A DNA stretch of 23,540 nt from Opitutaceae bacterium. Lineage in GTDB: Bacteria; Verrucomicrobiota; Verrucomicrobiia; Opitutales; Opitutaceae. The notes under the pieces were generated by a model. It was not told where the DNA came from. It worked only from the letters and a program-made list of their open reading frames with translations, and did not search any database. Each line of letters starts with the position of its first letter. Within the stretch, counting starts at the first letter, position 1. The translations under genes were made by a program, and so were the position numbers. Shown here piece by piece: positions 6,188 through 17,524 of this stretch. Where the stretch lies: assembly GCA_035513275.1 (NCBI GenBank), contig DATKCJ010000187.1:1-23540 (forward strand). Reading direction: 5' to 3'.

Positions 6188-7750
6188 CTACCGCTCGAGC
6201 GTGACTTCCTTGCCCGAGGCGAGGCGGACCGTGAGCGTCGCGCCGGGACGGAACTGGAGTCCGCGATAGTCCTCGCCGGCAATCTGAGTGAGTTCAGAAA
6301 TGTATTTGGTCGGGCCGACGAGGTCGTCGTAGGTCGCAGACGTCTTGCCCGTCTCCATGAAGAACTGGTCCGCGGCGCCAGAGAGTTGCCGGAGGTTGTT
6401 GAGCACCGCCTTTTGCTGCGAGGTCTCCCGGACCTTGTTGAACGCGGGAATCGCCATCGCAGCAAGGAGCCCGACAGTGACGGGATTGTAGACGGCGAGT
6501 CCGGCCAGGTCCTGTTTCATCGAGCGGTTCCAATACGACTCGATCAGCAGCCCGTCCGGCAGGTTGCTTCTCACTGAGATCAGTGGCCTGTCCGTCTGGG
6601 GCAGTTGCCGCATGAACATGCCAATCGCCCGCGCCGACTCGGCGGGCAGTTGCGGATTCAGGCTCTCGAGGTCCGCGAGGCGCTTGAAAAACTTCGGACT
6701 TAGGTAGACGAGGCCGTTGCCCTCGCTCGGCACGTGCGTGAGCGCCGTCTGAAATTCCGGATTGCCGGAGAGCCGGTCCGTCGTCGCGCGGCATTCGCCG
6801 AGGAATTGCGGCGAACTTGCGATGAGCAGCGTCGACCCGTCGATGACGACGACAGGTTGAATGCCCTTCATCGGAAGCTGCTGCCGAAACTCGAAGATCT
6901 CCAGCGCACCTTCCTTGCGCACCGCGAAAAAGGGAAGCTGGGTAAGTGCATCCCTCACCGACGGCGCGATTCCGTCGATGGAGATCAGGAACGAGAATGC
7001 CGGCATCTTGAACTGCTGCGGTGTCGGCAACGTAATGTTTTCCTGCGGGTCGAGTCGCATCACGAACGCCATGTGCCCCTTCCAGCCTTGGACGATGCTC
7101 AGCACGGAGATCGCCGCGTTGCGTCCTGCATCCTTCAACGCCTGCTCGATCTTCCCGGAAGCTTCCTTGCCGGCCGTGATGTCGACGATCTGGAGAATCG
7201 TCGAGTAGACGACGGGCACGTCGACCTCGGTTTCGGCGAAGAAGTCCGCATCGGCTGGCGCGAGGTTGAGCCGCGCGAACGGGGCCGGCGGGCCGCCGAG
7301 TCCGGCGACCACTCCCCGCCGCTCACCGGGGATGTGGACATACATCCTATTCCTGAAAAATCCCGTGCCGTCGGGCACAGAACTGACACCGACCGCCTTG
7401 ATGCCGTCGAGACCGAGAGCAGTCACCAGCGCCGGGTAGTCCTGCTTGAGCGCCTTGGCGTTTGCCGGTTGTGCCTCGGCGAGCCCCGCCATGAACAACT
7501 CGATCTCCCGCGCGATCTTCATAACGTCGCCGTCGACGTCGGCGTAGCCATAGAGGGTTCCACCGACTTCGAGGTGCTTGTGCACAGCCATGAAGTGGCG
7601 GCTCCGCTCCTCTTGTTTCACCAAGGCGATCGCGTCCGACTTCGAAGAAGTCGAACCGGGCGCCGACCCGGTCGCCTCGTCTTTCTTGCCACAGCCCGCG
7701 CAAACGAGCATCGCCACGAGCATAGCACCGCAAGCCAGTCGGGTATTCAC
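6188..7750 (-). CDS. Secreted or lipoprotein hypothetical protein of about 520 aa. An N-terminal domain of roughly 400 aa has no recognised family. The C-terminal 110 aa are a type II secretion pseudopilin (GspG)-like module without a prepilin leader.
   Basis: The signal-like N-terminus is (V/M)NTRLACGAMLVAMLVCAGCGKKDE. Alternative starts are 7822, 7750 (GTG), 7723 and 7711. The C-terminal segment VGLLAAMAIPAFNKVRETSQQKAVLNNLRQLSGAADQFFMETGKTSATYDDLVG...GKEVTLER closely follows the pseudopilin α1-helix and αβ-loop consensus (LAAIAIPnF.kaRe.sq......nLRqi..a.eqy..e.g). The stop TAG at 6188-6190 was verified. Confidence 0.6.
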   Translation of the reverse strand: MNTRLACGAMLVAMLVCAGCGKKDEATGSAPGSTSSKSDAIALVKQEERSRHFMAVHKHLEVGGTLYGYADVDGDVMKIAREIELFMAGLAEAQPANAKALKQDYPALVTALGLDGIKAVGVSSVPDGTGFFRNRMYVHIPGERRGVVAGLGGPPAPFARLNLAPADADFFAETEVDVPVVYSTILQIVDITAGKEASGKIEQALKDAGRNAAISVLSIVQGWKGHMAFVMRLDPQENITLPTPQQFKMPAFSFLISIDGIAPSVRDALTQLPFFAVRKEGALEIFEFRQQLPMKGIQPVVVIDGSTLLIASSPQFLGECRATTDRLSGNPEFQTALTHVPSEGNGLVYLSPKFFKRLADLESLNPQLPAESARAIGMFMRQLPQTDRPLISVRSNLPDGLLIESYWNRSMKQDLAGLAVYNPVTVGLLAAMAIPAFNKVRETSQQKAVLNNLRQLSGAADQFFMETGKTSATYDDLVGPTKYISELTQIAGEDYRGLQFRPGATLTVRLASGKEVTLER

Positions 7751-7877
7751 AGTCCACAGATAGCGCAAATGGACGCCGCGCAGGAAGCCGATTCTTATGC
7801 GTGAGGCGCTCGGTTCCGACATTGACGTGATTTGTGTCCATTCGCGGTTGAGCGGACACGCTCGAGCCAGTCTCGCC

Positions 7878-8516
7878 TCAATCGCCCGACGGCTTCTCCG
7901 CGACGAGTATCATGCTCATCCAAAGCCACGGGAATCGTCCGGCGCCGATGAACTTCGTGACTCGGAAGCCCTCCTCCTCGAGGAGCCTTGTGAGTGTCGC
8001 ACGCGACCAAAGCTTGATGTGCCCGCCGTCCCAGAACGGCGAGAGGTGATCGTCCCACTTGTCTGTGAGTGAAAGCATGAGGTTCTTCAGGTAGCCGTGA
8101 TAAGGTGTGCTCACGATCAGGAGTCCACCCGGCCGAAGAACCTGTTTAGCGAACTGCGGCAAGTGTCGTGGCATGGCGAGGTGCTCCACGACTTCCGTGG
8201 AGACGACGATATCGAAGCCGCGCTCGCCCAGTAGCGTCGGATCATCGTCGACGCCGAGCTGCTTGAACGTCGCGCCCGGGACGGACTCCGAGGCGATCCG
8301 AATACCCTCGCCGCTCGGGTCGCAGCCCACCGCGCTGAATCCTGCGTGGGCGAGCTCGCGGCAGAACGCTCCGTTGCCGCAGCCGAGATCGAGCACCCGC
8401 TTCGCACCGAACTGCGCGCAAGCGGCGAGGATTGGCTTCCACAAGTAGTCGCTGGTGTGCGCGGCATCCGCCGAGCCGTAGTGATACTCGCCAGGTGTTG
8501 CGTTTGAGGTGTTCAA
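7878..8516 (-). CDS. Class I SAM-dependent methyltransferase, 212 aa, translationally coupled to bshA. It is a candidate NmbA-like N-methyltransferase.
   Basis: Motif I VLDLGCGNGAF, the acidic post-I loop and motif II/III DIVVSTEVVEHL are present. The start lies 8 nt after the bshA stop. Confidence 0.8.
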   Translation of the reverse strand: MNTSNATPGEYHYGSADAAHTSDYLWKPILAACAQFGAKRVLDLGCGNGAFCRELAHAGFSAVGCDPSGEGIRIASESVPGATFKQLGVDDDPTLLGERGFDIVVSTEVVEHLAMPRHLPQFAKQVLRPGGLLIVSTPYHGYLKNLMLSLTDKWDDHLSPFWDGGHIKLWSRATLTRLLEEEGFRVTKFIGAGRFPWLWMSMILVAEKPSGD

Positions 8517-8524
8517 GATGGTCC

Positions 8525-9657
8525 TCAGCCCGCACAGACTCGCCGGTAGATCGCCTCGTAGCGCGGCACGATCGCGGCCGCGGAGAACCGATCATGCGCG
8601 CGGACACGTGCGGCATCGCCGAGCGTCGCACGTCGCGCAGGATCGCGGAGAAGAGACTCGATTGCGGCGGCCATCGCGCCTGTGTCGGGAAACGGCACGA
8701 GCAATCCGTGCTCGCCGCTCGTCACGACCTCGGGAATCCCGCCGACGGCGAACGCCACACTGGGACATCCGACGCTCATCAGCTCGAGGATGCTCAGGCA
8801 AAAGCTCTCAACTTCCGATGTGAACAGGCCCGCGTCGGCCGCCGCGAGATAGCCTTCGATGTCACTCACCTTCTCGCGCACCACGATCCGGTCGGCCACG
8901 CCGCGCTTCGCGGCCTCGGCGAGCAGCGGCGCGGGATCGCCGCCGGCAAGCACGACGAGTTTGAAGGCAATCCGAGGCTCGAGCCGCGCCACCACGTCGA
9001 CAAGCAGGTCGAGCCGTTTGAGCGGGCGCAGGTTCGAGAGGTGCAGAATCATCGCCTCGCCGTCGGTGAGACCAAGCTCGGCGCGAATATCCGAGCGCGC
9101 GTGCTCCGCTTTGCGCGGCTCGAAGAAATTGTGGACGACGTCGATCGGACTCTTCACGCCGAGAAGCCGCTGCGTCTCGCGACGCAAGAACTCGGAGACG
9201 GTTGTAATCGCATCGGACTGCTCGAGCGCGTGCGCGATTGCCGGACCGTAGCCCGGATCGCGCCCGAGCAGCGTGGTATCGGTGCCGTGGAGCGTGGTGA
9301 TGATCTTGAGCCTTCGCTCGGCATGAAGCATTTCACGCGCAAGGATCGCTGCGGTCGCGTGCGGCACCGCGTAGTGCACGTGCAGCACGTCGAGTGCGTG
9401 ATCGCGGCTCACCTCGGCCATCTTCACAGAGAGCGGAAGCGTGTAGTCGGGATACTTGAAAAGGTCGTAGCTGTTCACCACCACCGGGTGGAAGAACACG
9501 TTCGCGCGCCGCGGCATCCGAAACGGCTGCTCGTAGCTGATGAAGTGAATCTCGTGCCCGCGCGCCGCAAGCTCGTCGCCCAGCTCTGACGCGAGGATCC
9601 CGCTGCCGCCGACGGACGGGTAGCAGGTGATGCCGATTTTTAGCGGGCGATCAGGCA
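8525..9657 (-). CDS. bshA: BshA, N-acetyl-α-D-glucosaminyl L-malate synthase (GT4 glycosyltransferase of bacillithiol biosynthesis), about 377 aa.
   Basis: The N-terminus MPDRPLKIGITCYPSVGGSGILASELGDELAARGHEIHFIS matches the BshA hallmark KIGITCYPSVGGSG. The protein aligns with Bacillus BshA along its whole length (TTLHGTD, GGIPEV). The ATG at 9657 is preferred over the GTG at 9679. Confidence 0.85.
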
Positions 9658-9672
9658 TGAGGAGCGAGGTCT

Positions 9673-9924
9673 TAGCCACAGATTACAAAGATGGGCACAG
9701 AGGAGAGGAGTCGGAGATTTACCACAAAGGCACAGATACACAAAGGGGCACTCGGGTTGTGATTTCCCAGTCGGATTCATTCAGTCGAAAGTAGCTGCCG
9801 ACGTGAAGAGGCAGATGAAACGGTGGCTGCCAAAAGACCTGCCTCGTTACCTCGGCAGCTACGGGACTTTTGCGTAATCGATTGCATCGTTCCGGCTCTG
9901 TGTCTCTGTGCCTCTGTGGTGAAC
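9673..9924. repeat. Inverted pair of YCTCTGTG-octamer repeat elements in the bshB-bshA intergenic gap.
   Basis: The forward copy CTCTGTGTCTCTGTGCCTCTGTGGTGAAC is at 9896-9924. Reverse-orientation copies are at 9718-9745 (reverse complement CCTTTGTGTATCTGTGCCTTTGTGGTAA) and 9673-9702. A near-identical copy is at 17496-17524. Confidence 0.5.
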
Positions 9925-9943
9925 ATGATCGGGTCGGTTCCGA

Positions 9944-10672
9944 TCAGAATTGTCGTGCGGAGCGGGAGGCCGCCGCGAGCGACGAGAAGACCAGCGCATC
10001 ATTCGGCCACAGAGGCTGCGCATGCCCTACCCCGGCGCGCAGGCCGCAGACGCGCGCGCGGGCGAGCTGAAGATCGACATACGCGCGCGTCTTGAGTTGC
10101 GAAGCATGTGCGAGCATCGCCTTCGTCCACCGGTCGAGCGCCCTGCGGGCGGAGATGTCGATGAACACGGGTTGCGTGGAGGGCTCGGCGTCCGGCGAGA
10201 CGGCGTAGAAGAAGAGCTGGCCGACGGCATGCGGACGCCGCGCTTTGAGCGGAGCGAGTCCGCCGTAGCGCGCAAGACGCGAAGCATCGCGCACGATCTG
10301 CGCCAGCCGCCAGTGATCGGGGTGCTGGTTTCCCTCGAGCGTGGGCGCGAGGACGGTCGAGGGGCGCAGCCGCCGGATGATCCCCGCGAGCTTCATCGAG
10401 TGCGCCGCCTTCACCTCGAGCTGAGCGTCGCCATCGAGCTCGATGAACTCGATTGTCGCGCCAAGGAGCTTCGCCGCACGCTCCGCCTCGGCGATGCGAA
10501 TCGCCGGCGTGCCGTTGCTGCCAGCTTCGCCGCGCGAGCAAACCACCATGTGAACCCGCCGCCCGCCGAGCACCTCGGCAGCGACGACGCCGCCGCATCC
10601 GAACTCGATGTCGTCCGGATGCGCACCGAAGACCAAGAGTGGCGGTAACAATGAAGGGGCAGACTTTTTCAT
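9944..10672 (-). CDS. bshB: LmbE/PIG-L family deacetylase, probably BshB (N-acetylglucosaminyl-malate deacetylase), 242 aa.
   Basis: The zinc-binding motif VFGAHPDDIEFGCGG is present together with the downstream HPDH motif. Assignment to BshB rather than a generic LmbE rests on placement between bshA and the BshC-like gene. Confidence 0.65.
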   Translation of the reverse strand: MKKSAPSLLPPLLVFGAHPDDIEFGCGGVVAAEVLGGRRVHMVVCSRGEAGSNGTPAIRIAEAERAAKLLGATIEFIELDGDAQLEVKAAHSMKLAGIIRRLRPSTVLAPTLEGNQHPDHWRLAQIVRDASRLARYGGLAPLKARRPHAVGQLFFYAVSPDAEPSTQPVFIDISARRALDRWTKAMLAHASQLKTRAYVDLQLARARVCGLRAGVGHAQPLWPNDALVFSSLAAASRSARQF

Positions 10673-10692
10673 GGCAGGAGTCGCCTCGGCGA

Positions 10693-10713
10693 GATGTCAC
10701 CTATTAGGTGACA
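10693..10713. promoter_or_regulatory. Operator-like palindrome ATGTCACCTA-T-TAGGTGACAT. This is the proximal copy, 21-41 nt upstream of the bshB ATG.
   Basis: Perfect 9-bp inverted arms TGTCACCTA/TAGGTGACA surround one central T. The site is AT-rich in a GC-rich context and an identical copy lies 46 bp away. Confidence 0.55.
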
Positions 10714-10738
10714 TTTGCCCGGGGCGTTCTTCAGAGGG

Positions 10739-10758
10739 AATGTCACCTATTAGGTGAC
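10739..10758. promoter_or_regulatory. Second (distal) copy of the operator palindrome ATGTCACCTATTAGGTGACA.
   Basis: It matches the proximal copy exactly over 20 bp, centre to centre 46 bp, about 4.4 helical turns. It lies between the BshC-like stop (10826) and the bshB start (10672). Confidence 0.55.
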
Positions 10759-10825
10759 AAGTCGGCTTGGGATCGGCGGTGAGGGGCTTGAACGTATTAC
10801 GTTACAAACGGGATTGGGACGGCGG

Positions 10826-11605
10826 TCAGGAAGCTGGGACATCGGTGTAGGCTTCATCGGAGCGATCGATTGGGTCGCGGGCGACGTAGGTTATCTCAGG
10901 CGCGTCGGACTTGTTCAAGTATGCCTGCTCCCCTGCCCCGGCGATGTAGTGCGTGCAGAGCACGACCGACTGCATCCAGCGCAGCCGGGAGTCGCGCGTT
11001 GGGCTGATGTGCTCCCGGGTGAACGGGATGTGCGGAAGCGTGAGCCACGAGTCGCCGCCTTCGTGGAGCTTCAGGGCACCTTCGATGCAGCGAGCGCGCA
11101 CAATCTCACCCGAGTGCGGCACATCGACGAAGTAGTCACTCACCTCGCAGGCGTCGGCGCGGACCGCCGGGTCGCCCGAGCGCACAACTCGGATACCATC
11201 GAGCAGCCCCATCGCGCGATACATCGCCAGGCAAAAGTCCGCATGGTTCGTGGCTTGGACCGACTTGAATGCCTCGACCCAAAGCGGGGCCACGAAGTTC
11301 GGAAGCTGCCGCGCGGTGTTCGCCTGCCAGCCATCGGGGATGTGCTTCAGGAAGAGCGGCGAGTACTTGCGCTGAATCTTGTTCGCGAAGGTGAAGTTCA
11401 GCGCTTGCGCGCCGTCTGTCCGGCGTTCGCGGAGGATAGTCTGCGTCTCGCGGCAGTCATGGTCGCTGTCGTGGCAGAAGAAGACGATCTCGCCGCCAAT
11501 CTCGGACTGCAGCCTGCGCGCGGTGATGATCTTCGCGTAGAGGAACCGCCGCGGGAAGAATCCGCAGGGTTGTTGGCCGAAGCAGATGACGGGGGAGGAG
11601 GGCAA
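10826..11605 (-). CDS. Short homologue of the BshC N-terminal Rossmann-like domain, a putative cysteine-adding enzyme, 259 aa with a TTG start.
   Basis: VICFGQQPCGFFPRRFLYAKIITARRL...FFCHDSDHD aligns with BshC [24 protein letters not shown]...FWVAGEDHD. RVVRSGDPAVRA aligns with BshC LVLLNSGDPGIK. The protein is half the length of canonical BshC (about 540 aa), and both flanks are occupied so the gene cannot extend. An in-frame TAG at 11642-11644 was verified. Confidence 0.6.
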   Translation of the reverse strand: MPSSPVICFGQQPCGFFPRRFLYAKIITARRLQSEIGGEIVFFCHDSDHDCRETQTILRERRTDGAQALNFTFANKIQRKYSPLFLKHIPDGWQANTARQLPNFVAPLWVEAFKSVQATNHADFCLAMYRAMGLLDGIRVVRSGDPAVRADACEVSDYFVDVPHSGEIVRARCIEGALKLHEGGDSWLTLPHIPFTREHISPTRDSRLRWMQSVVLCTHYIAGAGEQAYLNKSDAPEITYVARDPIDRSDEAYTDVPAS

Positions 11606-11686
11606 AGTGAGAGTGAAAGTGAGAGTGAGAAGAAATGGGGCCTATAGGCCTTATGCGACCCATAGGACCTATGTGGCCTATGCGAC
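11606..11686. repeat. Intergenic repeat cluster made of a (CTCACT)x4 hexamer array abutting the TTG start, the 12-bp perfect palindrome GGCCTATAGGCC, and an approximately 27-bp tandem CCTAT(A/GT)GGCC(T)TATGCGAC repeat overlapping the symporter stop.
   Basis: 11606-11631 is GTGAGAGTGAAAGTGAGAGTGAGA. 11639-11650 is GGCCTATAGGCC. TATGCGAC occurs at 11652-11659 and 11679-11686. Confidence 0.45.
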
Positions 11687-13396
11687 TGAAGGAGCCCCGG
11701 AAGATGAGTGTCCTCGCGGCAGCACAGCCTGCAAAATGAGACTGAACACCACGCAGGCGATGCAGCCGATTGGGTTGAGCCAGAGGTAGGCGATGCCGAA
11801 CTTCGGGCCGAGGAAATAGAGCGCGATCACCACGATCTGCGCGGAGACCGCGGCCCAGAATACAGCGGTCCCACCGACTCGCTTGAAGAAGAACGCGACA
11901 ACGAAAACGCCAAGCAGCGCCGGATAGAAGATCGAGGCGACGATGTTCAGCGCCTCGATGAGGTTCTCCGCGAAGCTCACGAAGAGAGCGAAGCTGATCG
12001 CGAAGCATCCCCACAGCGCGGTCAGCCACTTCGCGACGCGGACGTTGCGCGCCTCGTCGTGCGCCGCGAGCGGACGGAAGCGCCGCCAGAGATCGATCGT
12101 GCTCGTGGTGCCGAGCGCGTTCAACTCGCCGGCCTTCGACGAGAGTGCCGAGGCGAACATGACGGCGATGAGCAGCCCGACGAGTCCTTGCGGGAGCTGG
12201 TTGAGGATGAAGTTGATGAAGACGTAGTCGGAGTCGCGCGTCTTCTTCGACTCCGGGGCCGCCGCGTGGAGCGCGGCGCGCGCCTCGTCACGGATCGCGG
12301 TGGATGCCCGCTGCGCGGCGGAAAGTGCCTCTCGCGCTGCGTTCTCGATCGACGGATCGCCCAACTCGCGCGCTGCGACGAACTCGCGGATCCGCTCCTG
12401 CTTGTCCGCGTGCGCCGTGGCATGGCGTTGCTCGAACTCCTGGAACTGCGCGGCGTTCGCACCGTTGACCTGCTGCTGCCAAGCAGCCTGGTTGAAGACA
12501 ACGGGCGTGCCTGCGTGAAACTGGTAGAACACGAAGAGCAGCGCACCGAGGATCACGATGAAAAACTGCATCGGGATCTTGAGGAGTGCGTTGAACATCA
12601 GCCCGAGTCGCCCTTCGCGGAGCGCGGCGCCGCCGATGTAGCGCTGCACCTGCGACTGGTCGGTGCCGAAATACGAGAGCGAGAGGAAGAAGCCGCCGAG
12701 GATGCCGCTCCAGATCGTGTAGCGCACGCGGAGGTCGGGGTTGTAGTCGACCGCCTCGAGCTTTCCCATCGCGCCGGCGATCGCGAACGCATCATCCGGC
12801 ACGCTGCGAACGAGGATGATGAACGCCGTGACCATGCCGCCGAAGATGACGGCCATCTGCCATTTCTGCGTGAGGTTCACTGCAGCGCTGCCGCCGGTGA
12901 CGGTGTAGACGATCGCAAGGACGCCGGTGAAGATGATCGTGAGATCGAGCCGCCAGCCGAACACCGTCGAGAGGATGATCGCCGGCGCGTAGATCGTGAT
13001 ACCGCTCTGCAGGCCGCGTTGGAGGAGAAAGATGCCGGCGCCGAGGAGCCGTGTTTTCCCATCGAAACGCCGGCCGAGGTATTCGTAGGCGGTGTAGACA
13101 CCGAGCTTGCGGTAGATCGGCAGGAAGACCGCGCACACGAGGATGAGCGCGAGCGGCAGGCCGAAATAATTCTGGATGAATGCGATTCCGTTTTCGTAAG
13201 CCTGGCCTGGAAGCGAGAGGTAAGTGATTGTGCTCGCCTGTGTGGCCATGACCGAGATGCCGATCGTGGCCCAGCCCGTAGTCTGGTTGCCCTTGAGGTA
13301 GGTGTTGAGATTTCGCGTGTGACGCGTGCGCCAAGTGCCGTAGGCCGCGATGCCGACCATGGTCCCGAGCAGGACGAACCAGTCGAGGGCGTTCAT
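11678..13396 (-). CDS. Sodium:solute symporter (SSS/SLC5) family transporter, 572 aa, with an approximately 90-aa hydrophilic Ala/Arg/Glu/Gln-rich insertion between helices.
   Basis: The N-terminal helix pattern includes the conserved SSS segments GWATIGISVMATQASTITYLSLPGQAY and YTAYEYLGRRF. The insertion covers residues about 302-392 (coordinates about 12221-12493). The start overlaps the upstream small ORF by ATGA. Confidence 0.85.
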   Translation of the reverse strand: MNALDWFVLLGTMVGIAAYGTWRTRHTRNLNTYLKGNQTTGWATIGISVMATQASTITYLSLPGQAYENGIAFIQNYFGLPLALILVCAVFLPIYRKLGVYTAYEYLGRRFDGKTRLLGAGIFLLQRGLQSGITIYAPAIILSTVFGWRLDLTIIFTGVLAIVYTVTGGSAAVNLTQKWQMAVIFGGMVTAFIILVRSVPDDAFAIAGAMGKLEAVDYNPDLRVRYTIWSGILGGFFLSLSYFGTDQSQVQRYIGGAALREGRLGLMFNALLKIPMQFFIVILGALLFVFYQFHAGTPVVFNQAAWQQQVNGANAAQFQEFEQRHATAHADKQERIREFVAARELGDPSIENAAREALSAAQRASTAIRDEARAALHAAAPESKKTRDSDYVFINFILNQLPQGLVGLLIAVMFASALSSKAGELNALGTTSTIDLWRRFRPLAAHDEARNVRVAKWLTALWGCFAISFALFVSFAENLIEALNIVASIFYPALLGVFVVAFFFKRVGGTAVFWAAVSAQIVVIALYFLGPKFGIAYLWLNPIGCIACVVFSLILQAVLPRGHSSSGAPSVA

Positions 13397-13536
13397 GCGA
13401 AGTAGCGCGTGAAAATCGTCAGGCCGATGACGACGAGGACGAATACGCCGAACACGAAGAGGTAAATGCCGCGCCAGGTTCGGAAGCCGGGCACGCCGGG
13501 CGGCGCGTGGTCGTCGTCGGGATCGGGCGCGTTCAT
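13393..13536 (-). CDS. Small membrane protein associated with SSS transporters (DUF4212/DUF3311-like small subunit), about 47 aa. An alternative longer start at 13629 is possible.
   Basis: MNAPDPDDDHAPPGVPGFRTWRGIYLFVFGVFVLVVIGLTIFTRYFA has a single transmembrane helix. Its stop overlaps the symporter start, which is the typical small-subunit/SSS arrangement. Confidence 0.45.
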   Translation of the reverse strand: MNAPDPDDDHAPPGVPGFRTWRGIYLFVFGVFVLVVIGLTIFTRYFA

Positions 13537-13629: not shown

Positions 13630-16179
13630 TCATTCATGACCCAGCGAGATGAGGTTCGCGAAAAGCCGATACGCGCCTGGCACGCCGGCGGGGAGCTGCC
13701 TGAAGAACGCGAGACCTGTGTAGACGTAGTAGCCCTTCCCGTGGCGCGCGATCAGGACGCTGCTGTCCGGCTGTGTCTGCCCCGGATCGCTCATCGCCAG
13801 CAGAGCAGTGTAGCTCGCCTCGTCCCAAGTGCTCGGGAAATACGCACCGCGCTCCTGCACCCAGCCCTCGAAGTCGGCCTGGTTGATCTTGTTCGGCGTG
13901 TTGAGCGCGGGATGATCGGGTGCGAGGAAGTTCACGGGAGCCGTCTCGTCGGTCACTCGAAAGCGAGCGGCCTGGCCCTCGATCGAGAGCGGAAACGGCC
14001 CGAGTTGCGTCGCCTTCAGTCCGTTGGGCCGGTTGTATTGGGCAACGACCGTGCCGCCCGCCTCGACCCACGCGAGAAGGCCGGGGAAATTCGCCCCGAG
14101 GTCGTCGCGCTCGTTGAACGCGCGCACACCGATCACGACCGCGTCGAGCCCGGCGAGTCGCTCCAGCGTGAGATCGGCGCCGGTGAGCACGCGCACCGTG
14201 CATCCGAGTTGCTCGAGCGCCTCCAACGTGCTGTCGCCTGCACCCGGCAGGTAGCCAACATTTTTCGCCAGCGTGCGCGCGTCGCTGCTCACGAGTCGCG
14301 CAGCCGCCGGCGGTTGCAGCAACTGGACGGGAAGGTGATCGTAGCGCAGTTCAATCCTCTGCGTTGAGTATTCGCGGCTGTCGATCGTTGCGGTCGCTTT
14401 CAATTCGCCACTCGCAGCAGCCGCCGGCGCAGTCACATCGAACGAGAGACTCGCCTGCTCGCCCACGGCACGGGTCGCGAAATCGCGCGCTGCCGGGGTC
14501 ACCTTCCAGCCGACCGGCACATCGAGACGTAGCGTTCCGCGAAGATCCGCGCGCGCTGCAGATACCTCCACCCACACGGATTTCGTTCCGCCCGGCGGAA
14601 CAAGCAGCACCTCGGAGCCGATTCTCAAGGACGCCGGCGGAATGAACTTCAATTCGCTCCGCGCGTCGCCCGCCACAAAGACCGGCGTCTCCACCATCGC
14701 GAAGCGGCGACCGTCGATCTCAAACTCGAGCTCGACCTGAAGCACGGGGGGATTCTCCGGCAGCCCGATCATCGCGGCGTCGCTCACTTTCGCGATTCCG
14801 GCCGAGCCTTTCTCGCGCAACCAATATGGCTGCGTCAGAGGCGTGTCCGCTGGAATCACGAATGTGTCGCGCTCCATCCGCTCCGAAATGGGAATCGCGT
14901 CGGCGGCGTGGGTGCCGACTTGTTGTTCGTGGACGACTCGACCGTTCACGAGGTAGCGCACAGACGTTTGGCGGCCCGGAACCGGCGCCAGATTCCATTG
15001 ATGCCGCGTGACCGTGACTGATTCGCCCGGGACGATCTCGCCGCGTTCGACCGTCGCTTCGAGTCCGAGCCCGAGGCACGCGCGAAGGATGCTGTCGAGG
15101 GCGGCGCGACGGTCTGCGACGACGGAATCGTCAGGCAGGTCCGCCAGTTTCGCGCGAAGTTCAAGAAGCGCGGGCACGCTCGCGGCGGGCTCGGTGGCGT
15201 CGAAGCTTGCCGCGAGTTTCGCAACAAGTTCCTCGACCCCTGCGCCACCGGTGTAGCGCGTCCAACCCGTGTCGACACCGTCCATCAAGTCTGACTCTGC
15301 CGGCTCGCCCGCCATGAGCAGGAAGTTCTGTTCGTTGGCGCCGGTGCGCGCGCGGTCGACGAAGCCGCCGAGGCCTTGCGTCTTGTGCATCGCTCGGCTT
15401 TTCGCGGCGATCAGGCCAAACGACTCGCCCGTGACGGGGTCGGTGCCCGCGATGTCTTGCATGAAGACGGGTCCGTCGAGCGGCAGCGGAGCGTTGGGGT
15501 TGAAACGAAATGCGTTCCAGAGGACGCGCTTCGCCTGCCATGGCTTGAGGCCCTGCGCAATCTGCTCGGGATACGCCGTCGGGTCGGCTGATATCTTGAA
15601 GGCCTCGACCGCGAGGATGCCCGACGCAGTATGTTGGCCGTGACCGCCGCTGCCGGGAGGAATTGGGAAACGCGTGACGATCACGTCGGGACGGAACATG
15701 CGGATCACGCGCACCACGTCGGCGAGCACCTGCTCGCGATCCCAGAATTGCAGCGTTTCCTCGGGCGACTTCGAATAGCCGAAGTCGATCGCGCGCGTGA
15801 AGAACTGGCTCCCGCCGTCGAGCCGGCGCGCAGCGAGCAACTCTTGTGTGCGCAACACGCCGAGCTTCTCATCGAAGTCGCGGCCTAGTTCGTTCTGCCC
15901 GCCGTCCCCGCGCGTGAGCGAGAGATAACCGGCGCGAAACCCGCGGCCACGAGAGAGCCACGTGATCAGCTCGGTATTCTCATCGTCGGGGTGCGCGGCG
16001 ATGTGCAGCACCGTGCCGGTCGTCGCGAGCGCGCGCAGGTCGTGCTGGATCTGGATCCGCGCGGCGTCGCTGAGCACTTCGCGGACGACTGGCGGGCGTT
16101 TCTCCGCGATGTCGACCGGAGGCGGCGAGTCGGTCGCACTCGCGAGCGATGCAGTGAACGCGAACAAGCATGCGCTCAT
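13630..16179 (-). CDS. Secreted approximately 849-aa fusion protein: an N-terminal PIG-L/LmbE-family deacetylase domain plus a C-terminal ThuA/class-I-glutamine-amidotransferase-like domain.
   Basis: The signal peptide MSACLFAFTASLASA begins at the ATG at 16179 (verified). The deacetylase motif is LHIAAHPDDENTELITWL...TRGDGGQN. The C-terminal segment DAVVIGVRAFNERDDLGANFPGLLAWVEAGGTVVAQYNR follows a ThuA/DJ-1-like fold pattern. Confidence 0.75.
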   Translation of the reverse strand: MSACLFAFTASLASATDSPPPVDIAEKRPPVVREVLSDAARIQIQHDLRALATTGTVLHIAAHPDDENTELITWLSRGRGFRAGYLSLTRGDGGQNELGRDFDEKLGVLRTQELLAARRLDGGSQFFTRAIDFGYSKSPEETLQFWDREQVLADVVRVIRMFRPDVIVTRFPIPPGSGGHGQHTASGILAVEAFKISADPTAYPEQIAQGLKPWQAKRVLWNAFRFNPNAPLPLDGPVFMQDIAGTDPVTGESFGLIAAKSRAMHKTQGLGGFVDRARTGANEQNFLLMAGEPAESDLMDGVDTGWTRYTGGAGVEELVAKLAASFDATEPAASVPALLELRAKLADLPDDSVVADRRAALDSILRACLGLGLEATVERGEIVPGESVTVTRHQWNLAPVPGRQTSVRYLVNGRVVHEQQVGTHAADAIPISERMERDTFVIPADTPLTQPYWLREKGSAGIAKVSDAAMIGLPENPPVLQVELEFEIDGRRFAMVETPVFVAGDARSELKFIPPASLRIGSEVLLVPPGGTKSVWVEVSAARADLRGTLRLDVPVGWKVTPAARDFATRAVGEQASLSFDVTAPAAAASGELKATATIDSREYSTQRIELRYDHLPVQLLQPPAAARLVSSDARTLAKNVGYLPGAGDSTLEALEQLGCTVRVLTGADLTLERLAGLDAVVIGVRAFNERDDLGANFPGLLAWVEAGGTVVAQYNRPNGLKATQLGPFPLSIEGQAARFRVTDETAPVNFLAPDHPALNTPNKINQADFEGWVQERGAYFPSTWDEASYTALLAMSDPGQTQPDSSVLIARHGKGYYVYTGLAFFRQLPAGVPGAYRLFANLISLGHE

Positions 16180-16353
16180 TGCACGGGCGCGATTCGACCA
16201 CCGCGCTTTATCCAGATCAGCCGCGACTGCGCATTTCAAAGTTTCGATACGCAACAGTCGGGTCATTTGGGACATGGATAGCCGGAAGGCAGTCAAGCGG
16301 GTGGTTGCGCAACGTTGATTGTGGGTAAATGAATCGGAAACACGTGGATGCGA

Positions 16354-16396: not shown

Positions 16397-17272
16397 TTAC
16401 TTCAAACTGTCGATGAGCGCTTTGTTCAGGCGCGTGTATTCCGCCTTCAACTCGGCCGGGGTCTCCGCCGGGCTGTTCTTGATCAGCTCGAGCGATTCGT
16501 TGGCCGCGGCGAGCGCGCCGGCCTTGTCGCCCATCTTGGCGAGAATGAGGCCCTTTCTGTAGACCATCCACATCTGGCCGGGGCTGGCTGCGAGCGCGGC
16601 GTTCATCCACTCGAGCGACTTCTTCAGGTCGAGATTGTTCTCGTAGTAAAACATCGCTGACTGGAAATACGGCTTCTTCTCGGCATCCGACGCCATGACG
16701 GCCTCGATCTTGGAAACCAGCATGCCGGCGAGGTCGGTCTCAATCTTCACGGGAACGCGGGCGTTCTCCCACATCAGGTAGAGTATGGCCGAGCCCTCAG
16801 CCGAGAGATTTGAGACGCCGATCGAGAACGTCTCGATCGCGTTCGGAACCGCCGCGGGCTTGACGGTGACGCGGGCCACGTCGTTCGCCACGTTGTAGGC
16901 GTAGGAGCCCCACTGGCCGGTGACGTTGTTTAGGATGACGGTCCACTCGCCTTCACCCGGGATTGAGAAGAGCGCGTAGGTGCCCGCAGCCACGTCGGTC
17001 CCGCCGAACTTCACATCGGTGCTGAAGGTGACCTTCGTCGCCGAGTTGGCGCCGGTGCGCCACACTTCGCCGTAGGGCACGAGACCGCCGAAAATCTTCC
17101 GGCCGCGCATGCTGGGCCGCGAGTATTCGACGGAGATGTCGGTGATGCCGACCCGTTGTTTAAAAGTCGCGGCCGGGCTCGGCGCGGGAAACTCGATTTG
17201 GGGGGCTTGGGCAAAAAGGCCGGTGGCAAGCACCAGACCTGAAACAATAGTCAACACGGAGCGGGTGTTCAT
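16397..17272 (-). CDS. DUF2911-like periplasmic protein with a C-terminal TPR-like helical region, about 291 aa.
   Basis: The signal peptide is MNTRSVLTIVSGLVLATGLFAQAP, with the ATG at 17272 verified. The block RVGITDISVEYSRPSMRGRKIFGGLVPYGEVWRTGANSATKVTFSTDVKFGG resembles the DUF2911 core. The family name is recalled from memory and not certain. Confidence 0.6.
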   Translation of the reverse strand: MNTRSVLTIVSGLVLATGLFAQAPQIEFPAPSPAATFKQRVGITDISVEYSRPSMRGRKIFGGLVPYGEVWRTGANSATKVTFSTDVKFGGTDVAAGTYALFSIPGEGEWTVILNNVTGQWGSYAYNVANDVARVTVKPAAVPNAIETFSIGVSNLSAEGSAILYLMWENARVPVKIETDLAGMLVSKIEAVMASDAEKKPYFQSAMFYYENNLDLKKSLEWMNAALAASPGQMWMVYRKGLILAKMGDKAGALAAANESLELIKNSPAETPAELKAEYTRLNKALIDSLK

Positions 17273-17443
17273 GGCAGGCTCTAGAGAAACCAACACTTTC
17301 GCAAATTCCACTCAAATTCCGCAAAAGGTTGAAACGAGGCCACGAAGCCCTTGGTGCGCGGATGAACGGTCTCTGGCAGCCCGACGTTGGTCCGCCCATC
17401 GTTTGCGCTGCATGCACCTGGGCCCGTAGTAGAAGGAGTTGAA

Positions 17444-17524
17444 CGACAGAGGCACGAAGACGCGGAGAAAATTCATGCACTCGTTCTCCTCAGATCTTTG
17501 TGTCTCCGTGTCTCTGTGGTGAAT
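17444..17524. repeat. Inverted pair of YCTCTGTG-octamer repeat elements in the intergenic region between the DUF2911-like gene and the GNAT gene.
   Basis: The forward copy CTTTGTGTCTCCGTGTCTCTGTGGTGAAT at 17496-17524 matches 25 of 29 positions of the 9896-9924 copy. The reverse copy at 17444-17470 has reverse complement TTTCTCCGCGTCTTCGTGCCTCTGTCG. Confidence 0.5.

Follow-up and report, generated by a model that had tools for sequence, protein, structure and literature searches.

A half-length protein with the predicted fold of the BshC catalytic core is encoded beside bshB and bshA in Opitutales

BshC is needed for bacillithiol production, and a mutant lacking it builds up glucosamine (GlcN)-malate. 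A protein of 259 amino acids (aa), here termed mini-BshC, is encoded beside a bshB-like gene and bshA in a 23,540-nucleotide (nt) stretch of DNA (i.e. the window; positions 1 to 23,540 of contig DATKCJ010000187.1, assembly GCA_035513275.1), which is a contig of an Opitutaceae metagenome-assembled genome (MAG). A first-pass annotation had described seven minus-strand open reading frames (ORFs) in this region, all of which were found with identical coordinates. These ORFs and the adjoining features are given below from the highest coordinates downwards.

16397..17311, minus strand: DUF2911/TPR protein (PF11138), a conserved neighbour upstream of the block
13630..16296, minus strand: exported large PIG-L protein, ORF of 888 aa (PF02585 and NPCBM_assoc)
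13393..13536, minus strand (ORF to 13629): small single-helix membrane peptide, 47 aa from the ATG at 13536, with PGVPGFRTWRGVY and a transmembrane segment
11678..13396, minus strand: SSS sodium:solute symporter, 572 aa (PF00474 and TIGR00813)
10826..11605, minus strand: mini-BshC, 259 aa, TTG start, predicted equivalent of the BshC core (B. subtilis residues ~83-378)
10694..10759, no strand: palindrome pair, two identical 20-nt copies of ATGTCACCTATTAGGTGACA in the mini-bshB spacer
9944..10672, minus strand: BshB-like PIG-L/LmbE deacetylase, 242 aa (PF02585, E=4.6e-23; AHPDDIE motif)
8525..9679, minus strand: BshA, GT4 glycosyltransferase, 384 aa (TIGR03999, 398 bits)
7878..8516, minus strand: S-adenosylmethionine (SAM)-dependent methyltransferase, 212 aa (Methyltransf_23), beginning 8 nt past bshA
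6188..7822, minus strand: pilin-like protein, 544 aa (weak PilA match, E=3.6e-4)

The two genes that follow mini-BshC were examined using family models. On its family score the glycosyltransferase is identified with certainty as BshA: the 398 bits obtained on TIGR03999 exceed the equivalog cut-off of 273.7, and KIGITCYPSVGGSG, on which the gene had first been called, is present. The zinc motif ascribed to the bshB gene was likewise seen, as AHPDDIE, together with a PIG-L domain. For this 242-aa deacetylase the top NCBIfam family was TIGR04001 (i.e. BshB1) with 127 bits, so that BshB1-like is the best family description, though the score falls under the equivalog cut-off of 182.5. Upstream of mini-BshC, the ORF of the 47-aa peptide and the start of the symporter gene share 4 nt.

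An NCBI record (hypothetical protein VMM36_08050) is identical (100%) to the 259-aa protein. The ORF cannot be extended, as the first-pass annotation had held: an in-frame TAG at 11644-11642 lies 13 codons upstream of the TTG at 11605 with no start codon between them, and the start site matches that of homologues. The operator that had been said to bound the gene was misplaced, the palindromes being located downstream of it, before bshB. Relatives of the protein comprised 6574 database entries at E<=1e-3; nearly all were 254-260 aa long, and among the matches listed, lengths were 254-263 aa, with the exception of two of 278 and 298 aa, and all of these listed relatives were unnamed and had no Pfam domain. 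The family has no Pfam or NCBIfam entry, is unnamed everywhere and is unmentioned in the searchable bacillithiol literature. A one-genome-per-species scan detected at least 593 carrier genomes; loci with the gene are given below as L numbers, and 80 Opitutales loci were fetched. Labels of the best 80 genomes were nearly all Opitutaceae, Opitutales or Verrucomicrobiota. Candidatus (Ca.) Udaeobacter belongs to a second branch of the family (about 60% identity), and archaeal contigs carry a small third one (about 40-45% identity). Three contigs with a typical Opitutales cluster (69-74% identity) were labelled Candidatus Limnocylindria (L029), Phycisphaerales (L063) and Candidatus Binatia (L066), which are likely to be binning or labelling errors.

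Half the length of BshC, a TTG start and an origin on a MAG contig would fit a full-length bshC that had been truncated to a pseudogene or misassembled. Thousands of homologues of equal length occur in independent assemblies, closed chromosomes included, and 24 columns are invariant over 33 sequences reaching down to 30% identity. Predicted models of the protein are compact and confident. Database 'homologues' of 300-475 aa were considered as bridges to full-length BshC and rejected, as these longer versions are visibly frameshifted read-throughs into adjacent genes. Because of the conservation data, pseudogene or artefact status is excluded, and the probability left to it is negligible.

The gene neighbourhood was examined in the 80 Opitutales loci by tblastn with the window proteins. 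Matches were obtained for the symporter in 79 loci, the BshB-like protein in 79, BshA in 76 and the large PIG-L protein in 64; the order and orientation of the block genes were constant, and the misses were due to contig ends. A homologue of the DUF2911 gene lay ahead of the block in 54-59 of the 80 loci, and also in L087, L088 and L089, and the PGVPGFRTWRGVY peptide immediately preceded the symporter in ~68 (with gene calls for it in L087 and L089). No gene past bshA was conserved. The seven genes of the first-pass annotation had been proposed to form one transcription unit, running from the small peptide to the pilin-like gene. This unit has to be redrawn: none of the 80 loci carries the methyltransferase or the pilin-like gene, which are local additions of the window, and the window genes are also separated by spacers of 72, 153 and 264 nt. 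At the upstream end, the conserved block continues to the 888-aa PIG-L and DUF2911 genes. The conserved block consists of DUF2911, exported PIG-L, small peptide, SSS symporter, mini-BshC, bshB and bshA.

In L087, a 6.5-Mb contig, all gene calls between the large PIG-L gene and bshA abut or overlap, with the symporter stop overlapping the mini-BshC start and a 35-nt overlap between mini-BshC and bshB, which is the signature of one operon. An overlap of the symporter gene with the mini-BshC start is frequent in genomes other than that of the window. BshA of this locus scored 381 bits on TIGR03999, and its BshB-like protein again fell under the cut-off of TIGR04001, its best family. The upstream genes are co-inherited and, by prediction, translationally coupled with mini-BshC. 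In the window, translation of the large PIG-L protein is likely to begin at the ATG at 16179, for a product of 849 aa that includes a signal peptide, and signal-peptide-like N-termini were seen on the proteins of the window, L087 and L089. In the window and the other copies of this gene (i.e. 5564-8104 in L087; 4653-7178 in both L088 and L089), the encoded proteins have 816-888 aa and a conserved C-terminal domain, and the gene always precedes the small membrane peptide, followed by the SSS symporter. No description of an exported LmbE-family enzyme tied to an importer and bsh genes was found in the literature. The solved structures closest to the symporter are SMVT, SiaT, NIS and SMCT1. The trio of mini-BshC, bshB and bshA was adjacent in 76-79 of the 80 loci; BshC itself was first identified via co-occurrence and co-localisation with bshA and bshB (PMC5790435).

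Similarity to BshC was examined by aligning the mini-BshC family with a 23-sequence BshC alignment using hhalign. The resulting alignment is collinear and extends over 209 columns, pairing mini-BshC residues 4-232 with BshC residues 83-359, as compared to a longest alignment of 119 columns among 400 column shuffles. Both families are conserved (>=85%) at 43 aligned positions, and the residue is identical at 18 of these, against a mean of 1.5 and a maximum of 6 in a circular-shift control, a count that is supportive and not independent as it was made on a similarity-optimised alignment. Shared residues (mini-BshC/BshC) are D48-H49-D50/D134-H135-D136, E53/E139 and S143/S232 (i.e. the SGDP block) in the front part, and S201/S328, R207/R334, M211-Q212/M337-Q338, G223/G350, E226/E353 and Y229/Y356 in the rear part. 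The GQQ..G, KII and SGDP blocks cited in the first-pass annotation are present in the 259-aa protein, and, compared with the invariant core motifs of BshC (i.e. GGQQ, EDHD..E, NSGD, SNN..R..MQE and GPGE..YW), the identical residues include D-H-D, E, S, S/R/M-Q and G/E/Y. The proposal that this ORF represents the central Rossmann-like segment of BshC was thereby upheld, with the alignment spanning BshC 83-359 and the invariant residues coinciding.

Pfam divides B. subtilis BshC into a Rossmann-like domain (residues 1-378) and a coiled-coil domain (380-539). The mini-BshC N-terminus lies only 9 residues ahead of GQQ, and the ~82-residue N-terminal segment of BshC is absent; its C-terminus lies ~27 residues past the column of BshC 359, and the coiled-coil domain (PF24850) is absent, homologues having lengths of 254-268 aa. 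Initial estimates for these missing parts, ~95 N-terminal and ~200 C-terminal aa, were about right, the values found being ~82 and ~160. C8, C125, C217 and H219 are invariant or nearly so throughout the mini-BshC family, and the aligned residues of B. subtilis BshC are V, F and P/T. By analogy with CysRS and MshC, these residues might bind a metal through which cysteine is recognised.

The fold was assessed using two independent predicted models. For both models, BshC (4WBD) ranked first structurally by a wide margin, leading all other structures by 5-6 Z units, and the alignment with 4WBD covered 87-92% of the mini-BshC protein, including insertions outside the basic HUP core. The models display a Rossmann-like core with connective-peptide insertions that is superposable on 4WBD. 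According to these models, mini-BshC has the fold of the BshC catalytic core and none of that enzyme's other parts. The suggestion of the first-pass annotation that the gene encodes a BshC reduced to its minimum, or else a ligase sharing the core fold of BshC, gains from 4WBD being the top structure for both models and from the fixed position of the locus beside bshB and bshA. The HIGH and KMSKS signature motifs of class I aminoacyl-tRNA synthetases (aaRS) and MshC were not found in the mini-BshC protein. That the protein is instead a HUP-class nucleotide binder or regulator without catalytic activity, resembling BshC only in a general way, is nevertheless very unlikely: canonical BshC likewise lacks HIGH and KMSKS, no other structure comes within 5-6 Z units of BshC, the coverage of 87-92% takes in insertions beyond the HUP core, the invariant residues are common to BshC, and the gene holds a fixed slot between the symporter and bshB/bshA, the last two points favouring an enzyme that belongs to this pathway.

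Mini-BshC was compared with known systems. BshC (i.e. YllA of B. subtilis; 4WBD; PF10079 and PF24850; TIGR03998) and mini-BshC share the collinear elements GQQ, (E/S)DHD..E, SGDP, S-x5-R-x2/3-MQ and IAGxGExxY, the absence of HIGH and KMSKS, and a genomic tie to bshA and bshB. They differ in length (about 540 aa versus about 257 aa), with mini-BshC having shorter loops, no ~82-residue N-terminal segment and no coiled-coil dimerisation domain. Unlike BshC, mini-BshC is not detected by BshC hidden Markov models (HMMs), has its own invariant C8, C125, C217 and H219, shares its operon with genes for a symporter and an exported PIG-L protein, and occurs in Verrucomicrobiota and some archaea, outside the phyla known for BshC. 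MshC (the mycothiol cysteine ligase, a CysRS paralogue) resembles the arrangement predicted here in following a PIG-L/LmbE deacetylase (i.e. MshB), in the amine of a GlcN-glycoside and in a class-I-aaRS-type nucleotide-binding fold. Class I lysyl-tRNA synthetase (1IRX) and other class I aaRS differ from mini-BshC, which has neither an anticodon-binding domain nor HIGH/KMSKS; their structural scores are far under that of BshC and their genomic context is unrelated. In summary of these tests, the mini-BshC family fails those of profile and domain architecture and agrees with BshC in fold, invariant residues and gene context, and is classed as a core-only BshC.

The more distant branches of the family place mini-BshC in two further settings. 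In Ca. Udaeobacter (L088), the same block occurs without the small bshB gene and mini-BshC directly abuts BshA (368 bits on TIGR03999), leaving the large PIG-L gene as the sole deacetylase-family gene of the cluster. The archaeal mini-BshC genes (L081, 8001-8807; L084, 2184-2978; L090, 608-1408; L091, 2351-3151; GC content 38-55%) are located on contigs of three types, marked by PolD/Cdc6/eIF-2beta, GatA/GatB and topoisomerase VI/NurA. Here, mini-BshC is convergent and overlapping with a gene for a BshB1-like PIG-L protein of 223-239 aa, with these partners scoring 119-156 bits on TIGR04001 (cut-off 182.5). No BshA-type glycosyltransferase was found within 8 kb of the archaeal mini-BshC genes. 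A GNAT gene preceding one of them was considered as MshD-like and rejected, the match being of only 24.5 bits and that of a generic GNAT. BshC acts after BshB, and MshC acts after MshB. By analogy, the pairing of a PIG-L protein with a BshC-fold protein, differently arranged in two domains of life, provides the strongest contextual argument that mini-BshC may act on an amine freed by a deacetylase.

No canonical BshC was encoded in 1.35 Mb of fetched flanks. For Verrucomicrobia, a low-molecular-weight thiol has been neither documented nor predicted (PMC6282198), and a RefSeq survey from 2025, queried with BshA, BshB and BshC, listed no Verrucomicrobiota species with a complete pathway (PMC12719100 supplement). 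Because equivalog-grade BshA is present in these genomes, they are most simply read as lacking the canonical third enzyme, which the mini-BshC family would replace. For the last step of a bacillithiol-type pathway, the enzyme of which is missing, mini-BshC is the best candidate. We consider it probable, by a modest measure, that the 259-aa gene encodes a minimal and highly diverged BshC homologue, consisting of the Rossmann-like, class-I-aaRS-like core only, that serves as the third enzyme and gives bacillithiol or a very close relative. The basis of this proposal is the reality and conservation of the gene, its core fold, the shared residues and the synteny, and from these the reaction and product are inferred. 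In such a pathway, BshA would couple UDP-N-acetylglucosamine (UDP-GlcNAc) with L-malate to produce GlcNAc-malate, as suggested by its equivalog-level HMM match; the BshB-like PIG-L protein would strip the acetyl group to yield GlcN-malate, in keeping with its family and zinc motif; and mini-BshC, by its fold, residues and neighbourhood, would put cysteine on the freed amine, yielding bacillithiol or a very close relative. More speculatively, the exported PIG-L protein, the peptide and the carboxylate-type SSS symporter may serve to scavenge a GlcN- or GlcNAc-carboxylate precursor and bring it into the cell.

Several results, besides the dependence of the residue count on its alignment, weigh against this proposal. 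A BshC profile search had been expected to show similarity and was negative throughout: Pfam and NCBIfam models gave zero matches at E<=10 for the window protein and 22 relatives; PDB sequences, queried by the single protein and by a profile, did not return 4WBD/BshC; and a search of 1.84 billion representative proteins with the profile gave 259 matches, all from the same short family or fragments. The family HMM scored -0.4 bits on B. subtilis BshC using hmmsearch --max (i.e. with filters off). The hhalign comparison itself had P=0.019 and a probability of 2.5%, and its score was matched by 7 of the 400 column shuffles; judged from sequence statistics alone, the link between mini-BshC and BshC is marginal. 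The evidence for the fold comes from predicted structures, and 4WBD is within the AlphaFold training data. The absence of a canonical bshC rests on the two published surveys and the 1.35 Mb of flanks. A purely biosynthetic role does not explain the tight link to an importer and an exported PIG-L protein. Finally, the role of 'cysteine ligase' is a genetic inference even for canonical BshC because no in vitro reconstitution of its reaction has been achieved, nor is the activated form of cysteine known (PMC5790435).

The extreme divergence from BshC in sequence could also be due to a change of substrate, with mini-BshC being a BshC-fold ligase for another amino acid or another amino-sugar acceptor and the product being a mycothiol-like N-acyl-cysteinyl-GlcN or a non-thiol. 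The family-specific C8, C125, C217 and H219, at which B. subtilis BshC has V, F and P/T, would fit such a change, as would the BshB-like enzymes, all of which are under the BshB1 cut-off, and the archaeal members, which have no BshA-type GT4 nearby and of which one lies beside a GNAT acetyltransferase. This GNAT had only 24.5 bits to MshD. The residues held in common with BshC are BshC's own invariant ones, and the BshA cut-off was passed in the window, L087 and Ca. Udaeobacter, making GlcNAc-malate the likely scaffold in the bacteria. On this evidence, a different substrate, the main alternative to the proposal above, appears unlikely.

The conservation of the upstream genes bears on a further explanation, namely an uptake and salvage module in which the exported PIG-L protein would trim an external GlcNAc-carboxylate or thiol conjugate, the SSS symporter and peptide would import it, and mini-BshC would re-acylate or otherwise process it in the cytoplasm. 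The order of PIG-L, peptide, SSS and mini-BshC genes is conserved as well as that of mini-BshC, bshB and bshA, and stop and start codons overlap from the large PIG-L gene through mini-BshC in L087. The large PIG-L protein bears signal peptides and is the sole deacetylase-family protein encoded in the Ca. Udaeobacter cluster; SMVT, SiaT and SMCT1, the solved kin of the symporter, carry organic anions. Against salvage, archaeal members without the symporter and large PIG-L genes are still paired with a BshB1-like gene, BshA is a synthetic enzyme, and the substrates of the three upstream proteins are not known. Salvage as the main role is considered improbable, and it is in any case compatible with, and not opposed to, a cysteine-ligase activity of mini-BshC.

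A wider proposal, combining the core-only cysteine ligase with uptake, is put forward as a tentative possibility: Verrucomicrobiota (i.e. Opitutales and Ca. Udaeobacter) and a few archaea may make bacillithiol or a new GlcN thiol by means of a self-contained 257-residue ligase, with Cys/His residues that perhaps bind zinc, supplemented by PIG-L/SSS scavenging of precursors. The fixed linkage to the symporter and exported PIG-L protein hints at such scavenging, which has not been described for the bacillithiol pathway. A core-only form known from thousands of sequences and confident models would define the essentials of BshC, an enzyme whose reaction has been unresolved since 2010. Mini-BshC offers a second and simpler protein for in vitro work and complementation and, if the assignment is true, a form without accessory domains in which the BshC reaction could finally be reconstituted. 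A bacillithiol-type thiol would also be predicted in Verrucomicrobiota, among them abundant soil and freshwater lineages (e.g. the very abundant soil genus Ca. Udaeobacter), and in some archaea, and surveys that demand a canonical BshC will undercount bacillithiol producers.

The spacers of the window were also examined, as genes are tightly packed in most relatives and the 72-, 153- and 264-nt spacers of the window contain repeats. The 72-nt spacer between the symporter and mini-BshC contains ATAGGNCC-type repeats and a 12-nt tandem repeat. Within 11604-11686 of the window, the 12-mer AAAGTGAGAGTG occurs twice in tandem, overlapping the mini-BshC start, alongside three overlapping copies of a 25-mer resembling ATAGGNCCTATG. 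In the 153-nt spacer between mini-BshC and bshB, the identical 20-nt palindromes (at 10694-10713 and 10740-10759) are 46 nt apart, with 0 expected by chance. The TCACCTAATAGGTGA core of the palindrome is also present, once each, in the same spacer of L056 (2547-2563) and L076 (about 4183); elsewhere in the 91 loci the palindrome core was not found beyond the window and these two loci, all of which are Opitutus-type genomes. By its sequence, this lineage-specific palindrome pair before bshB is probably a binding site for a dimeric regulator, similar to a repressor operator.

The 264-nt spacer between bshB and bshA (9680-9943) can form a long nested hairpin (minimum free energy -97 kcal/mol, z = -5.5) built of CACAGAGGCACAGAG-type inverted repeats. 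The same 15-mer is also present in the same spacer of L018 (11643-11657), and a copy with two mismatches lies at 17504-17518 of the window. This hairpin had no Rfam match, and its sequence suggests a small repeat element or else a structured RNA. Taken together, the spacers of the window look like lineage-specific insertions with a possible bshB-bshA operator, and they weaken the claim of a single transcript for the window genome. Scans of the window gave zero Rfam matches, zero tRNAs and nothing useful for sigma-70 promoters or terminators.

The methyltransferase adjoining bshA in the window was compared with NmbA (i.e. CT1040, the bacillithiol N-methyltransferase; 9RI2), a protein of 266 residues with a four-strand cap domain (PMC12719100). 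Both are SAM-dependent, and the window gene adjoins a bsh gene. Orthology was rejected, as the 212-aa Methyltransf_23 protein does not match 9RI2, which was not among 36 PDB sequences at E<=1e-3, and the gene is found in none of the 80 related clusters. If this methyltransferase acts on the thiol, it would represent an independent invention of thiol methylation. The 544-aa protein encoded further downstream has a lipoprotein-like N-terminus (LVCAGCGKK), and its pilin-like hydrophobic helix is located at residues 449-496, near the C-terminus and not the N-terminus. P0396 is called 'Zn/Cd-binding protein ZinT' by JGI and looks mis-annotated.

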